The notes under the pieces are model-generated. The model searched no databases and had not been told where the DNA came from. It saw only the letters and a list, made by a program, of their open reading frames with translations. 26,543 bases of DNA from a virus (lineage: Duplodnaviria; Caudoviricetes). The number at the start of each line of letters is the position of its first letter. Within the stretch, counting starts at the first letter, position 1. The stretch covers positions 1 to 26,543 of IMG/VR virus record IMGVR_UViG_3300030433_000473, one strand, 5' to 3'. A program made the translations under genes and the position numbers. Positions 857 to 7,764 of the stretch are shown in pieces.

Positions 857-1059
857 TGGCTAAATTTGATAGTATTCCAGGAGCAAGTAGGTTTTCAAAG
901 TCTACTCTAAATAAAGTGTACCGTCGTGGCTTGGGTGCATTTTATTCTAGTGGTAGTAGACCCGGTCAAAGCGCACACAGTTGGGCTATGGGCCGGGTCA
1001 AATCTTTCGTTAGTGGTAAGGGTGGTGCAAGAAAAGCTGACAAAGATTTATTGTCATAG
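856..1059 (+). CDS. Small basic protein, DUF5824-like (67 aa)
   Basis: AAGGAG RBS at 841-846. The motif VYRRGLGAF.SSGSRPG..AH.WAM.RV.SF...ADKDL is recalled from DUF5824-type viral proteins. Confidence 0.7.
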   Translation: MAKFDSIPGASRFSKSTLNKVYRRGLGAFYSSGSRPGQSAHSWAMGRVKSFVSGKGGARKADKDLLS

Positions 1060-1296
1060 AACTCGCAACCCTCGCTCAGTGTAAGGCAATACCTCAATGT
1101 AACCTCGTTGCTTTAGTCGGGTCATGATAGCCCAGCAAGCAGACTTGTGACGCTTGGGAAGTATCTGTCTACCGTCTATCTCACCCGCCGCTATCTCAGC
1201 CGTAGAGGGATAGACCCCGTAGGTTTTCTGGTAAGCAATTAAAAAGTCATAGACCTTTTTCTGCTTCGGGGTCATACCAAACTTCTCATCTTTCAT
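1054..1296 (-). CDS. LexA N-terminal-like winged-HTH regulator (no peptidase domain)
   Basis: MTPKQKKVYDFL..YQ...GVYPS..EIA and L.QRGYI....RGL match the LexA DNA-binding domain pattern. Start placed at ATG 1296, overlapping the RecT 3' end. Confidence 0.8.
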   Translation of the reverse strand: MKDEKFGMTPKQKKVYDFLIAYQKTYGVYPSTAEIAAGEIDGRQILPKRHKSACWAIMTRLKQRGYIEVLPYTERGLRVL

Positions 1297-2251
1297 TGTC
1301 TCTCTCCTCAATGCTCAAACCTTTATTGTATTGAATACGTTTCTCCTTGAGTTCCTTCGCCATATCTTCAGGAATTGTTTTAAATGTTTCCAAATTAGCT
1401 TGCTCAAGTTCTTTCATCTTGGTACGTTTCTGTGCCGGAGCAAGCTTTGAAGCCTTCACGACTTTCAAAAGCAAATCATTGTAAGCATCCATGTAATCTA
1501 ACGGTTGTTGAAAAATGACAGGCTCCTTGTTGGGAACGCAAAGATAAAATTCTTCTGCGACTATGTCTTCTCCTTTCTCCGGCACGACACTCAAGCCCTC
1601 TAAAATTTTATCAAACTGTGAGGTCGGTGGCTCTTGCACAACTTCTGCTTCTTCAATCTTTGGTTGGGTCAAAGTTTCTATTGTTGGTGCGGCTACAGCT
1701 TCTTGAGTTGGGGTTACATCCTTCGGCTCTTCAATGTCCTGTGCTTCCTCACTTGTTATGATGCCTCGAAGAACGTCAGGGAAAGCGTCACGCAGTGCGT
1801 TGCCCCTCGCCCGGTGTTGTAACATTCTGTCCGGGTAAGCTTTCCATGTGGGTCTGTTTGATAGCCCGGCTTGCTCTGCTTGTTTCATTGAGAAGGTTCT
1901 TTTGACTTCTTCAATGCTACCGTCAGATAGTCTACGTTTAACTATGCAAGTAGCAACCCCACCCTCTTGAGTTTCTTCTACACCCATACAACGGTCATCA
2001 GCCCTCACCATAGCCAGTAGTGAATCTCCATAAACTGAGGGCTTGCCATTGATAACAGCGATGTTCTGAAGTGCTTGTAGCGGTGCTAGACCTAACTCCA
2101 TACCCCATTGAATAGCAACTAGGCAGTTAGCTGGCTTCCCTTGGTAGTCTTTTGGTAGAAGTCCAGACTTACTAATTACCTCAGAAAATTTTATTGCCTC
2201 TTCCATTGTTTGGGGCTGCAAGGTTTTCCGGCTTGTTACTAAACTATTCAT
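1286..2251 (-). CDS. recT: RecT-like single-strand annealing protein
   Basis: P..Y.GKP.NCL.AIQ.G.ELGL.P.QAL.NI.VING.P and W..YP.RML..RA...ALRD.FPDVL.G motifs. Adjacent to the YqaJ exonuclease. Confidence 0.88.
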   Translation of the reverse strand: MNSLVTSRKTLQPQTMEEAIKFSEVISKSGLLPKDYQGKPANCLVAIQWGMELGLAPLQALQNIAVINGKPSVYGDSLLAMVRADDRCMGVEETQEGGVATCIVKRRLSDGSIEEVKRTFSMKQAEQAGLSNRPTWKAYPDRMLQHRARGNALRDAFPDVLRGIITSEEAQDIEEPKDVTPTQEAVAAPTIETLTQPKIEEAEVVQEPPTSQFDKILEGLSVVPEKGEDIVAEEFYLCVPNKEPVIFQQPLDYMDAYNDLLLKVVKASKLAPAQKRTKMKELEQANLETFKTIPEDMAKELKEKRIQYNKGLSIEERDNER

Positions 2252-3170
2252 TGCTCGTTTCCTTTATTGCGAAAGACACAGAGTCATAGAACTCTCCCGT
2301 GCCTACCTGTGTTTTTCTTTCTCTGGGTTGTGACGCTGCTTTGATTTGAAAGCCGGGTATCTTGGCATACTCAACGTCAAGACTATCCAGGCACATTGTT
2401 ATGTTGTCTTTGAGCTTATCCTTCTCAACCTTCGCCGCACGTTCTGCACCAGCCCACTTGAGATAGTCACTACAAAGCAAAGCCAAGTCCTGATTGGTTT
2501 TTTCTAGGTGCTTAGTTATGTCCTCATACTCAGGCTTTGCGTCTTCAGCTATCGGCGGGTACTCTCCGTCTTCTTTGACCAAAGTCCAGAACTCGGCATA
2601 ACAATCAGCCATAATCTCAACCATCAGTCCATCCCATTCTACCGGGTACAGATGCAACCTTCCCTTCTGGCACATACAAGCAATGATTGCCCAAGACATT
2701 TCCGCACAAAACATTTGGTGCATGACCTGAATAATCCACTCTTGTTTAGGCTTGTCGTTGTGATAGAAGTCAGTCTTTATCTCGACAATGCCTTGCCCCA
2801 CGAACGTCGCCTGACCACCATCATGCTTATCAAGTGTTATGGGTTCAGACAGTTCAATTATTCTGTCTATGCTACTGGCAATGCCTAGCCCTTCCTTTCG
2901 ATACGCTTCAGTAGGTTCAAACATTATGGCGTCGCCGCCAGACAAACGCTCTATTTCTTCATTAGCCCAAGAAGCGACGCTAGGTTCTAAATGAGTACCA
3001 CGACGTAAAGCACGTTCGTTACGCACTTCCTCTATAGTCTCTACCCCGGCACGGGCTAGCTTATGTTTGCGTAAAACGTCATGCCTAGTTTGGAAGCTAG
3101 TCTTATGTAAAACAATCGCACCCGCTTCGCTGCTACCTATCTCGTAGCCTGTTTTTGTAAATTTTGGCAT
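2244..3170 (-). CDS. YqaJ/lambda-exonuclease-like viral recombination exonuclease
   Basis: IGSSE, RG..LEP, ASS.D, EIKT and Q..HQM motifs of the YqaJ PD-(D/E)XK family. Confidence 0.85.
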   Translation of the reverse strand: MPKFTKTGYEIGSSEAGAIVLHKTSFQTRHDVLRKHKLARAGVETIEEVRNERALRRGTHLEPSVASWANEEIERLSGGDAIMFEPTEAYRKEGLGIASSIDRIIELSEPITLDKHDGGQATFVGQGIVEIKTDFYHNDKPKQEWIIQVMHQMFCAEMSWAIIACMCQKGRLHLYPVEWDGLMVEIMADCYAEFWTLVKEDGEYPPIAEDAKPEYEDITKHLEKTNQDLALLCSDYLKWAGAERAAKVEKDKLKDNITMCLDSLDVEYAKIPGFQIKAASQPRERKTQVGTGEFYDSVSFAIKETSNE

Positions 3171-3173
3171 GGC

Positions 3174-3401
3174 TCAATATCCTTGAGCCGCAGCACAGTT
3201 ATCGTCGAGGGCGCAACCAAACATTAAAAACCAGTACATACTGTATGCAATCAGTATTAACAGCATAGTTTCTAAACAAACTGTGCTGTACAGTTTTACC
3301 TGTCTATTCTGTAAACCTGTTCGGGCTGTTAACACTAAGATAGTATATATTATGCGAAAAACTTCTATAGTTTCCCTCGCAAAGCTCCTTATTTTACTCA
3401 T
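3174..3401 (-). CDS. Small putative membrane protein (75 aa)
   Basis: AAAGGAG RBS and a hydrophobic C-terminal segment. The ORF contains the dif-like site at 3333-3360. Confidence 0.6.
   Translation of the reverse strand: MSKIRSFARETIEVFRIIYTILVLTARTGLQNRQVKLYSTVCLETMLLILIAYSMYWFLMFGCALDDNCAAAQGY
3333..3360 (-). other. dif-like XerCD site (XerC arm + spacer + degenerate XerD arm)
   Basis: Minus strand reads TTTTCGCATAA-TATATA-CTATCTTAGTG versus E. coli dif GGTGCGCATAA-TGTATA-TTATGTTAAAT, 19/28 identical by manual alignment. Confidence 0.55.
3344..3362. repeat. 19-bp perfect direct repeat, copy 1 (TATATATTATGCGAAAAAC)
   Basis: Identical to 5242-5260. Confidence 0.95.
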
Positions 3402-3460
3402 TGTCTACTCCTTTTCTACCCCCTGTATAACTGAAAGAGGGTTTTTTACAAACGTAAAAC

Positions 3461-3874
3461 CTACCCTTTGGGGTCAAATTCTACGGGTTTTGGGTATTCC
3501 AACAGGTCTTCACGTTTAGCTATTTCGTCGTGTCCATTTTTATCTACCAACCCTTGATTGGTATATTCTAAATGTTCTGCGCCCCTGTCTCTTGGGTCGC
3601 TTGGCGTCATAGCTGCGAAACGCTGGTTCGCTGCTGTTAAGGTCATTTGAGCGTATAAACATTTGTCAGAATTTCTAAGCGTGTTAGAGTTCTTTATTCT
3701 TTTTAGCTCATCAACCAAAGCGGAGAGTTCATCAATGCTCTTAGTGAGATGGTCTATATGCCACATCTGTATGTCGAGCCTACGCTTAAAGCGCATTACG
3801 CCCTTACGGATGTTATACAACGTATAGTTAAAACCCTTACGTTTGTAGGCCGGGTATAACGTGCGTTTACTCAT
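3461..3874 (-). CDS. Hypothetical protein (137 aa)
   Basis: AGGAGAG RBS, co-oriented with the left operon, with a possible coiled-coil segment. Confidence 0.7.
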   Translation of the reverse strand: MSKRTLYPAYKRKGFNYTLYNIRKGVMRFKRRLDIQMWHIDHLTKSIDELSALVDELKRIKNSNTLRNSDKCLYAQMTLTAANQRFAAMTPSDPRDRGAEHLEYTNQGLVDKNGHDEIAKREDLLEYPKPVEFDPKG

Positions 3875-3951
3875 CGTTCACTCTCCTACCTCTGTGTGTA
3901 TCACAATAAAATCAAAAAAAAATATCAAGCGGTTTAACATTTTTTGTTAAG

Positions 3952-4449
3952 TTACTTATATTTTTCTGCGGTTTCTGTATCAATCAAATATTGCAGCTCA
4001 ACAATAGCACTGGCGGTCGTTCGTATCCCAATATTTTTGCAAGAGCGACGTATCCATGCAACGTAATTGTCGTATGTTTTTATAAGGTTATCGTTTGCTG
4101 TGAATGTACAGTCTACTCTTTTGTCAGATTGATGTTCAATAACCCATCCAGCACCCACGCATTCGTCAACCATAGTGTCTAAAGCATTGCGAGAAATGTT
4201 AAGTGACTTGATAAGTTCCTTAAATGAAATTGGCTCTGCGTCGTAAGCTGCCCTAACTACATACATTAAAAATCGTCGCCTCTTTGAGGATGACAATGAG
4301 TATTCTGCAATATCACGCTCCCATTTATTTTCTATAATCCGACCAGCTTCAGCGGTCGCAATTTCAAGTGTCAGATTTTTTCTATTATATTCTCTTTCTA
4401 ATTTAACAAGTGCATCTGTAAAAGTTTGTAAGTTACTCTCTTGTTTCAT
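3952..4449 (-). CDS. Winged-HTH (MarR-like) DNA-binding protein
   Basis: ISFKELIKSLNISRNALDTMVDECVGAGWV fits an HTH plus wing. AAGGAG RBS, and ATGA coupling to the recombinase. Confidence 0.65.
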   Translation of the reverse strand: MKQESNLQTFTDALVKLEREYNRKNLTLEIATAEAGRIIENKWERDIAEYSLSSSKRRRFLMYVVRAAYDAEPISFKELIKSLNISRNALDTMVDECVGAGWVIEHQSDKRVDCTFTANDNLIKTYDNYVAWIRRSCKNIGIRTTASAIVELQYLIDTETAEKYK

Positions 4450-5225
4450 TGATTTGCTCCTTTCATTCTCTTAATGTAATTGTTTACAGACGACGCATAC
4501 CATTCTGTATTCTTTGCTAAATCTGGATTGCGGCGTTTGGATGGTGTAGGTACTTCCATCCTGTTTAACTGTCGTGCGATTGCTCGTAAGCTGTGACCTT
4601 GTGCCAACATATTTTGTATCAGAGGCCAAACATCTGACGCTCGTTCGTCAGCTAGTTCAGCTTGTTTAGCTCTACCGTTCACGGCTGCTTGGGCTACTGA
4701 GGGATGACCAAGCTTTTTAATTACTTTACCTGTTTTAGTGGTAAAGCTCCCCTTCTCTTTTATTTCAGCTTTGATACGGTTCATAGATGCTTGGGTTCTA
4801 TCGCGTATCATTTGCCGTTCCATTTCGTAGACCCCAGCAAGCAATCCGATAGTCTTATGGTCTAGTGTTGGATTGTCCACGACAACTAGCTTGATTTTGC
4901 CAGTCTTTACCTCTTGGTCAAAGAAACGCATTGTCTCCCAGGTGCGGCGCGACATACGGCTAAGTGAGTACAGAACCATAGTAGCCCCAGTTTTGCGGCA
5001 ATAATCAAAGCACTTGTGCAGTTCTTTACGGCTGTGCCAATCGCTTGCGGCACTCACGCCCTCCTCTTTGAACCATTTAACGGTATGGTCACCGCCATTG
5101 AGATAAGCTTTGATGCCGTGCATTTGGTTTTTAACATCTTGCTTATCTGTACTGACCCGAACGTAACAAGCGTACTTGCCTGTGTGTTCTACCCCGTGGT
5201 CAGGTCTAGTTTGAACTAATGTCAT
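4446..5225 (-). CDS. Serine recombinase (resolvase catalytic domain + C-terminal recombinase-type HTH)
   Basis: YVRVSTDKQ catalytic Ser motif, EEGVS, SRMSR, E.ER..IR.RT, and C-terminal SLRAIARQLN...PTP...W..SSV. Confidence 0.92.
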   Translation of the reverse strand: MTLVQTRPDHGVEHTGKYACYVRVSTDKQDVKNQMHGIKAYLNGGDHTVKWFKEEGVSAASDWHSRKELHKCFDYCRKTGATMVLYSLSRMSRRTWETMRFFDQEVKTGKIKLVVVDNPTLDHKTIGLLAGVYEMERQMIRDRTQASMNRIKAEIKEKGSFTTKTGKVIKKLGHPSVAQAAVNGRAKQAELADERASDVWPLIQNMLAQGHSLRAIARQLNRMEVPTPSKRRNPDLAKNTEWYASSVNNYIKRMKGANQ

Positions 5226-5241
5226 TGTATCCCCTTTCGAA

Positions 5242-5260
5242 TATATATTATGCGAAAAAC
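5242..5260. repeat. 19-bp perfect direct repeat, copy 2 (dif-like half site just upstream of the recombinase RBS)
   Basis: Identical to 3344-3362. Minus strand reads TTTTCGCATAA-TATATA-TTCGAAAGGGG. Confidence 0.95.
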
Positions 5261-5327
5261 CAATATACGGTTACCTTTCGTTTATACATCGTTCACCTAT
5301 GCATACGCATATCATGTGTATATCATC

Positions 5328-5362
5328 TGTACAAGTGGAAAATGTTAGGGTTGATTTGTACA
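5328..5362. repeat. Dyad element TGTACAA...TTTGTACA, copy 1
   Basis: 28/36 identical to 7766-7801. Intergenic, ending 10 nt before ATG 5373. Confidence 0.8.
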
Positions 5363-5372
5363 GGTAATTTTT

Positions 5373-6838: not shown

Positions 6839-7764
6839 TGCTAAAGTCAGAACTCACACCAGACCCGGTACGCGACGCACCAGACGGTCACGGCGAAAAC
6901 CAAAGCCCCGGCGCATACTCCGCACTTCCGGGCAGAGCCATAGTCGATGAACGCTTCTACCAATACCCCATGACAATGGTCGTACTCGCTCATTGCTGTG
7001 GTCACGTTAACTACCACACAGCCATATTCTGGGTAAACCAAAGCACCCTCGCCCGTCGAATGAACTGTACACAGCAAGCTATCTCTCAGCATATGCGTAA
7101 GCTCGTCCAATGGGGCTACATAGAAAAGATACGCAAGGAGGCTCCTATCAGAGCCTACGGACGTAAAGGAGCCGCTTGGAGAGTTATCTATGACCCAAGG
7201 GTATCACTAGACGAAGCACTCGCCACAATCCCTTCAGACGCAGCTACACCAGAGCAACAAGCAGAGGAGGCTAAGAAAACTATGGAACTCGCTACAACAG
7301 GACCAAAAGGTCAGAAGAAACGGTCAACAAAGCCTGTGGATAAGTCTACAACCCACAAGCCCCAGCTTGTAGATGATGATGACAAGTACAAGCCCCAGCT
7401 TGTGCATAGCCACAAGGTGCAGCTTGTTCATAAAGACTTACATAGAACTATAAATAAAGAGATAAAGGATATTGATTGCAAAAGATTATGTGAGCAATTC
7501 AGCGCGGAAATAATGAAAAGATATGGAAAAGGTTGGGTGTATGACTTGAGGCAGATGGAGTTGGCAAGGCAACTGTACGGACTTGGCTACACTGTCGATA
7601 GCTTTGGCAAGGATGCCGGGTATGTACTCGATTGGTTGGTAAAGAATAACAAGCAACACCCAGTATCGTTGCAGTATTTCATAGCCAGAAAGCAGAACAA
7701 GAAGGTAAACAAGACAGCAGAGGAGCATATAAAACATCTGACAAACAAGATGCGAATAAGGTAA
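6838..7764 (+). CDS. HTH replication initiator (lambda O-like architecture)
   Basis: N-terminal HTH (QSTLARRMNCTQQAISQHMRKLVQWGYI) and a central linker encoding iteron repeats (HKPQLV/YKPQLV/HKVQLV). Start reassigned to ATG 6838. Confidence 0.78.
   Translation: MLKSELTPDPVRDAPDGHGENQSPGAYSALPGRAIVDERFYQYPMTMVVLAHCCGHVNYHTAIFWVNQSTLARRMNCTQQAISQHMRKLVQWGYIEKIRKEAPIRAYGRKGAAWRVIYDPRVSLDEALATIPSDAATPEQQAEEAKKTMELATTGPKGQKKRSTKPVDKSTTHKPQLVDDDDKYKPQLVHSHKVQLVHKDLHRTINKEIKDIDCKRLCEQFSAEIMKRYGKGWVYDLRQMELARQLYGLGYTVDSFGKDAGYVLDWLVKNNKQHPVSLQYFIARKQNKKVNKTAEEHIKHLTNKMRIR
7335..7480. promoter_or_regulatory. Putative replication origin: DnaA box + 3 palindromic iterons + A/T-rich tract
   Basis: TGTGGATAA at 7335-7343, ACAAGCCCCAGCTTGT at 7355 and 7388, ACAAGGTGCAGCTTGT at 7412, followed by an A-rich stretch. 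Confidence 0.8.

Follow-up and report, generated by a model that had tools for sequence, protein, structure and literature searches.

The window analysed here, a stretch of 26,543 nucleotides forming positions 1 to 26,543 of the viral record IMGVR_UViG_3300030433_000473 (Duplodnaviria; Caudoviricetes), holds most of a podovirus genome, in whose leftward early operon a 19-bp sequence occurs twice in direct orientation on either side of a serine recombinase gene. The downstream occurrence, copy 1, is interpreted as a phage attachment site (attP) that would be recombined with chromosomal dif, the site through which bacterial chromosomes are untangled, by the XerC and XerD recombinases of the host; the podovirus would accordingly be an Xer-exploiting temperate phage of marine Rhodobacteraceae, a reading to which a probability of roughly 0.8 is given from sequence comparison. 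This role of copy 1 is regarded as the most likely because a siphovirus-like phage sharing the same gene module is found as a complete prophage at dif, because independent remnants of the module lie at dif in further genomes, and because a host-type xerC is present in two relatives of the podovirus.

It had been claimed from a sequence-only reading of this DNA that the repeat, TATATATTATGCGAAAAAC, is identical at 3344-3362 and 5242-5260 and encloses three genes, and this was confirmed: the genes encode a protein of 137 amino acids (aa), a 165-aa MarR-like winged helix-turn-helix (wHTH) protein and a 259-aa protein with Resolvase and Recombinase domains. A fourth gene, a 75-aa membrane-protein open reading frame (ORF) enclosing copy 1, had been overlooked. 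No third copy of the 19-mer is present in the window at up to three mismatches; its chance expectation is 0.01, two matches were obtained in 0 of 100 shuffles, and no exact direct repeat in the window is longer, the corresponding range in 100 triplet shuffles being 12-16. Read along the minus strand, copy 1 has the sequence TTTTCGCATAA TATATA CTATCTTAGTG and copy 2 the sequence TTTTCGCATAA TATATA TTCGAAAGGGG, the latter leading into the ribosome-binding site (RBS) of the recombinase gene, as had been described. The dif-like layout proposed for copy 1 also held: over its XerC arm and spacer, copy 1 agrees at 17/17 positions with the dif sites in chromosomes of several Alphaproteobacteria, while its XerD arm is degenerate and matches at 4-7 of 11 positions (against the seven genomic sites compared). 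The spacer is fully homologous to dif, which would allow strand exchange in either order.

An integrated carrier of the module was found in G834, a genome from the family of a Planktomarina metagenome-assembled genome (MAG), the family being Rhodobacteraceae. At 3,116,165, where the polarity of the FtsK-orienting polar sequences (KOPS) inverts, G834 carries the site TAGGCGCATAA TATATA TTATGTTAAAT (attR), with homologues of the recombinase, the wHTH and the 137-aa protein on one side and a host luxR-like gene on the other. At a distance of 36,246 bp lies AAGTCGTATAA TATATA CATTGTTTGAT (attL), followed by the remainder of the membrane ORF and a LexA-like helix-turn-helix (HTH) gene. The 36,246-bp prophage is siphovirus-like. 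Among its 63 ORFs are genes for a terminase, a portal, a protease, a capsid, head-tail and tail-tube proteins, a baseplate-like protein and a lysin, but a tyrosine integrase was not found, the best E-value with an XerD profile being 0.24. Its attL is made up of the host XerC arm, the spacer and a degenerate phage arm, and its attR of the phage XerC arm, the spacer and a canonical host XerD arm, that is, a regenerated dif. In the sister genome G638 the locus is empty and reads AAGTCGTATAA TATATA TTATGTTAAAT, with the same 17 bp as attL of G834; its left and right flanks align with the left and right junctions of G834, respectively. Each prophage end holds part of a homologous membrane ORF, in frame across the site, from which it follows that integration splits the membrane gene. 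The earlier suggestion of integration at host dif through XerC/XerD, with a degenerate XerD arm like that of TLC, is thus strongly supported for copy 1 by a module-sharing siphovirus-like phage, both junctions of which are at the site; of the podovirus itself no integrated copy was found. Among 71 relatives of G834, the 137-aa profile matched only G834 itself.

Remnants of the module at dif were found in other genomes. In G738 and G825 the order is the 3' end of the recombinase gene, an intact wHTH gene, a broken 137-aa gene and dif, with 99 bp and 101 bp, respectively, between the 137-aa remnant and dif (101 bp in phage L258), whereas G824 and G638 keep only the wHTH, 320-470 bp from dif. Intact wHTH genes stand beside dif in G738 (C1:1837652-1838212), G825, G824, G638 and G834 (C1:3152737-3153222), and the 137-aa gene adjoins attR in G834, G738 and G825. 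On a tree among 68 phage copies, six dif-adjacent wHTHs require 3 changes, and their grouping in one clade was rejected on a quick tree (approximately unbiased test, p-AU 7.7e-7), indicating that integration at dif happened several times; the final tree leaves out G703, G822 and G808, which are host genes away from dif, and the long branch L215. Between G738 and G825 the wHTH gene shows 20 synonymous and 9 non-synonymous codon differences, compared with 38 and 12 in the host luxR, while the 137-aa gene beside it carries frameshifts; by this contrast the wHTH seems to be retained by the host, and its retention after prophage decay is possibly a domestication for immunity. Host xerC and xerD are present in G738 and four relatives. 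A small separate element with two tyrosine-recombinase-like genes was also observed a few kb from dif (G638:C1:1830599-1838449; G834:C1:3153725-3158684).

Two podovirus relatives, L286 (3014-3979) and L346 (3293-4234), carry a full xerC directly after the LexA-like gene. It is of the Rhodobacteraceae type, 55% identical to XerC of G738, and its best match is TIGR02224, under the cut-off, as is that of the host's own xerC. In L217 (963-1646), L218 and L293 an XerC/D-like catalytic domain without the N-terminal domain is encoded just upstream of the serine recombinase. Altogether, an Xer-like gene occurs in 6 of 269 related loci, L217 and L303 coming from one contig.

Whether relatives keep the site had been named as a check, and copy 1 was found conserved in 123 distinct contexts, pooled from viral and metagenome loci with the window's own record counted; these are kin sequences and not independent events. 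In a survey of 74 distinct loci with recombinase and exonuclease, with a site defined by at most two mismatches to a 13-bp core, the site lies 3' of the 137-aa gene in 64 of the 69 loci that have this gene; the other five hold more diverged versions in the same place, and none of the five loci lacking the gene has a site. By the rule used, no copy-1 site was found in L246 and L354. The second codon of the site is ATA in 123/123 contexts (other isoleucines of the membrane ORF use ATT, ATA and ATC 150, 136 and 132 times), its tyrosine codon is never TAC, and the site is retained in 20 contexts despite closure of the membrane frame within 30 codons. Since synonymous positions are fixed and the site outlives the frame, copy 1 is constrained at the DNA level. 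In 858,398 downstream background bases no match to the core was found at up to one mismatch. In many relatives the RBS and start of the membrane ORF precede the site by 15 codons.

Of the 123 contexts, 53 have TTAT on the XerD side, 91 have C as the fifth base and none has TTATG. In the Vibrio work, FtsK-driven integration is reported to require TTATG, and C at position 5 to be tolerated with XafT only if the four inner bases equal those of dif (PMC9226527). The common phage arm TTATC fits the XafT-tolerated class, and the window's CTATC, which has neither T1 nor G5 (a lack shared by 31/123 contexts), fits neither favourable class. The spacers TTAGTA, TAGGTA and TCTATA, which are rare in the phages, are found again in dif sites from the Planktomarina genus.

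Among 120 genome stretches with the exact 17-mer of XerC arm and spacer, TTATG follows in 30; the named carriers of this combination include Rhodobiaceae, Sneathiella, Devosia, OCS116, Paracoccaceae and Verrucomicrobiota. A generic pattern of core and TTATG arm was matched in 164 of 401 genomes, nearly always once per genome, in a sample of the alphaproteobacterial class of G002 (a Rhodobiaceae genome); reversed-pattern controls gave about 9 matches, and the commonest spacers were TATATA and TGTATA. The 17-bp core is also present in SAR86, other Gammaproteobacteria and Verrucomicrobiota.

Several results weigh against the interpretation of copy 1 as the attP of a temperate podovirus. The one complete prophage belongs to a siphovirus-like phage, and identity between its module proteins and those of the window is 28-39% (39% for the 137-aa protein, 28% for the recombinase). 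An integrated RecE/RecT podovirus was absent from all genome and metagenome searches: the exonuclease profile was found in 0 of 401 family genomes (a search with no positive control), a pattern search of metagenomes gave no hybrid junctions, and the TTATG arm was seen in 0 of 69 metagenome loci. The 137-aa profile matched 2 of 401 family genomes and 0 of 231 class genomes, and in GTDB searches with exonuclease and 137-aa alignments all that matched were short contigs of phage-like character within MAGs. In G834, about 3.5 kb beyond attL, there is a tyrosine-recombinase-like ORF, although the empty locus of G638 has it as well. By analogy with the Vibrio data, CTATC would belong to the poorest class of arms. 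Finally, since the 17-bp core is common to several groups, it would not identify the host by itself; the comparison with dif proposed earlier yielded a match to alphaproteobacterial sites, but the host prediction expected from it failed with the core alone.

If copy 1 is the attP, the host XerC and XerD would recombine it with chromosomal dif by exchange at the spacer. Hybrid attL and attR would arise, with dif regenerated at attR and the membrane ORF split, and the RecE/RecT/LexA-like part of the operon would be cut off from its upstream part; the split might form part of a lysogeny switch. An XerD arm without TTATG would spare the prophage from FtsK-driven excision at each division, the missing G5 acting as in TLC-phi and the gonococcal island, and the neighbouring 137-aa protein could serve as an accessory factor in the role of XafT. 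Spacer exchange, a regenerated dif, a split membrane ORF and the lack of a tyrosine integrase were seen in relatives; the window podovirus would itself still integrate.

The 137-aa protein gave no match in Pfam, the PDB or the atlas, and in BFVD only unnamed phage proteins were matched; its model is a helical hairpin without a known fold. A DUF3653/XafT match was obtained neither with the window's 35 ORFs nor with 14 proteins of the 137-aa family or the 63 ORFs of the prophage, although a distant analogue is conceivable. The 137-aa protein may activate or assist Xer. The modelled MarR-like wHTH may confer immunity. It was also considered as a mimic of FtsK-gamma and rejected, as its model matches MarR repressors and several loci have kept the site without the gene. 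The module occurs across different phage backbones.

As regards the alternatives, the absence of a podovirus prophage from the searches and the poor arm (by the Vibrio rules; PMC9226527) would also be expected if the site were bound by Xer and no longer, or only rarely, used for integration, serving instead in plasmid-like dimer resolution or as an Xer operator or roadblock in the early operon, and extra half-sites do adjoin RBSs and promoter-like sequences. This is considered unlikely, however: the site, its position and its spacing equal those in integrated relatives, two of the dif remnants have wHTHs that fall among those of podoviruses (67% identity to L027 and 52% to L182, the nearest podovirus copies), and Pfam/PHROGs searches of the window revealed no partition genes, one match to a ParB C-terminal PHROG falling within the virion-protein block. 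A likeness to dif that is incidental, the motif serving instead as part of a phage promoter, as the operator for one of the phage's proteins or as coding sequence for R-I-I-Y, is highly improbable. Although most relatives translate the site as R-I-I/M-Y and in one clade a sigma-70-like promoter overlaps the half-site, with TTGACC 17 bp before TAATGT (6/20 exact upstream copies), copy 1 has no -35 element (best 4 of 6, in 7/123), the fixed synonymous positions and the survival of the site after frame loss speak for a DNA-level role, and the prophage junctions are exactly on the site.

The serine recombinase, which had been put forward as an enzyme that might act at the two sites, always occupies the upstream position in the module, and in the window its YVRVST motif is intact (alignment). 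In siphovirus-like carriers, however, the catalytic motif is lost and the site kept; the recombinase of the integrated prophage G834 has the serine and lacks three conserved arginines that are catalytic in resolvases, and the nearest relatives of the G738 remnant also carry copies without them. Methylophilales phage MEP301 (MW452941), in turn, has an annotated recombinase in the same position, and no dif-like site was found in its genome by two patterns; its recombinase has been doubted as functional (PMC8024684). Because the site persists beside motif-less copies and MEP301 has the gene without the site, the recombinase appears unlikely to drive integration here, and that it, and not Xer, puts the genome into dif is scarcely credible, the exchange at the junctions being at the spacer as in Xer reactions. 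It was rejected as a large serine integrase, an enzyme of full length with a zinc-ribbon domain, since its 259 aa give only a Resolvase match and a 51-residue Recombinase match and the motif is lost in the integrated prophage. The motif-less recombinases of siphovirus-like carriers (L249, L255, L256, L258, L273 and L591:1635-2336) suggest, by sequence, a non-catalytic role for a common marine-phage recombinase gene. Nor did the idea fare well that the two copies bracket a 1,898-bp cassette excised as a switch, whether by XerC/XerD or by the serine recombinase; this is very unlikely. The direct orientation, the identical 17-bp cores and the agreement of the copy 1 and copy 2 spacers in 24/24 pairs (17 TATATA, 7 TGTATA) would suit such a cassette, but copy 2 is missing from 59 of 84 relatives and from the G834 prophage, the recombinase is retained in 52/52 distinct loci spanning DUF1064 to exonuclease, and where the wHTH or 137-aa gene has been lost naturally, the sites are not the end points of the loss. 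The deletion junction that had been named as a check, a 3362/5260 joint, was not found in the contigs of 4 runs, contigs being prone to drop rare forms.

Copy 2 probably represents a secondary half-site for XerC within a variable array of early genes. In relatives this array of small ORFs spans 131-2,184 bp between the divergent DUF1064 gene and the recombinase, and a half-site occurs in it in 25 of 84 distinct loci, a count that includes the window and a probable chance match in the Xer-like ORF of L217. Its XerD arm is never present. In most cases a stop codon or hairpin stands before the half-site and an RBS after it, and the genes that follow differ; it is present twice in L004/L008, bracketing one small ORF, and further half-sites stand before the exonuclease in L034, L198, L227, L231 and L320. 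Copy 2 may be bound by XerC and serve as a secondary attachment site or a point of exchange for early genes, or it may act as an Xer-sensitive operator, the odds between these roles being about even. The window's own array, at 5226-5372, is a near-empty form of this hypervariable region; an Arc-like ribbon-helix-helix ORF, recognised by eye, is present in the array of many relatives and not in the window. The 29 bp at 5239-5267, upstream flank included, are common to a copy-1-type site of another phage from the same run, and the flank of copy 2 may, from this match, derive from exchange between co-occurring phages. In L201, L202, L212 and L198 a repeated unit of about 30 bp (stop codon, GC-rich stretch, RBS) separates small early ORFs.

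The podovirus genome in the window has genes for a T7-like head-tail connector, scaffold, capsid, tail tubes, a terminase and a replication initiator. MEP301 is the closest cultured phage by terminase, at 68.5% identity. The early operon runs from the serine recombinase through the wHTH, the 137-aa gene, the 75-aa membrane ORF, a RecE-like exonuclease and RecT to a LexA-like HTH gene. All runs holding at least half of the window's words are marine metagenomes, runs with small word shares being left out of this result. As had been noted before, no tyrosine recombinase is found in the window, either by Pfam/PHROGs or by an XerD profile in six frames, in a record of 26.5 kb that is shorter than the longest contigs of relatives (30-34 kb). 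A promoter scan of the window gave nothing exceeding chance. A 16-bp iteron-like direct repeat, ACAAGCCCCAGCTTGT, was observed at 7355 and 7388 (window 7355-7403) within the replication initiator gene.

Table 1 Features of the attachment-site module and its surroundings in the window
Feature	Positions	Strand	Remarks
Copy 1, predicted attP	3333..3360	-	XerC arm 3360-3350, spacer 3349-3344, degenerate XerD arm 3343-3333
Small membrane-protein ORF, 75 aa	3174..3401	-	copy 1 inside, codons 15-24
137-aa protein	3461..3874	-	goes with copy 1; possible accessory or activation factor for Xer
MarR-like winged-helix protein	3952..4449	-	fast evolving; model pLDDT (predicted local distance difference test) 93, MarR-family top matches
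Small serine recombinase	4446..5225	-	Resolvase N-terminal and short Recombinase domain (Pfam); catalytic motif intact (alignment)
Copy 2	5231..5260	-	XerC arm and spacer, no XerD arm, fused to RBS; optional half-site
RecE-like exonuclease, RecT, LexA-like HTH	1054..3170	-	downstream of copy 1 (Pfam/PHROGs)

The prediction of lifestyle in tailed phages leans on the presence of an integrase. Here a family probably without an integrase acting at the attachment site nevertheless has a member lying whole in dif, which implies that abundant MEP301-related marine phages may be temperate. Hosts become predictable from the site and the dif remnants, the exploitation of Xer is extended to tailed phages of 33-36 kb, and two sister genomes, one with the locus occupied and the other with it empty, are available for direct tests. 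A second, unknown class of Xer activation factors was proposed for elements without DUF3653 (PMC6744903), and the 137-aa protein is a candidate for such a class. A wider proposal, held tentatively and with clearly less than even confidence, is that of a portable Xer-hijacking lysogeny module across a widespread family of marine podoviruses and siphoviruses, with an attP set in the membrane-protein gene so that the early operon is flipped by integration, the 137-aa protein as an activator other than XafT, an immunity wHTH kept by hosts at dif once the prophage has decayed, and extra half-sites for XerC that shuffle or control early genes. If this were true, many integrase-less marine tailed phages scored as lytic would be temperate on hosts of the Roseobacter group.

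Among known systems, the site resembles that of TLC-phi, a Vibrio cholerae satellite, which has a double-stranded attP whose XerC arm and spacer are dif-like and whose XerD arm diverges (PMC6744903, PMC9226527, PMC5357621), and which has no integrase of its own and regenerates a new dif on one side. It differs in that the carriers described here are full tailed phages of about 33-36 kb, with the attP within a coding gene, and in that no DUF3653/XafT was detected, an unrelated 137-aa gene being in the neighbouring position. The gonococcal genetic island of Neisseria is likewise a large element held stable at dif by a degenerate XerD arm, that of difGGI (PMC5357621), though it is a conjugative island and not a virion-forming phage. 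Double-jelly-roll prophages of Vibrio (PMC12715192), the Rhodobacter phage Jorvik (PMC10589892) and phiCAH24 (10.64898/2026.02.19.706829) share double-stranded DNA, the lack of an integrase, dif-like attP sites that include 17-bp one-armed forms, and a lysogeny module common to unrelated phage groups; all are tailless, and the Vibrio module consists of a repressor, an XafT homologue and attP. Temperate gokushoviruses also integrate in an XerC/XerD-dependent manner, with a variable XerD arm and a motif that sometimes lies at the 5' end of a coding gene, but they are single-stranded DNA microviruses of less than 5 kb (PMC7062461). MEP301 has a resolvase-domain gene before a YqaJ exonuclease (PMC8024684); in its annotation, unlike in the window, the exonuclease directly follows the recombinase, with neither wHTH nor 137-aa gene between them. 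[quoted passage not shown] What is new in comparison is the IMEX behaviour in tailed phages, the family-wide module, the pair of full and empty loci, and the host family.

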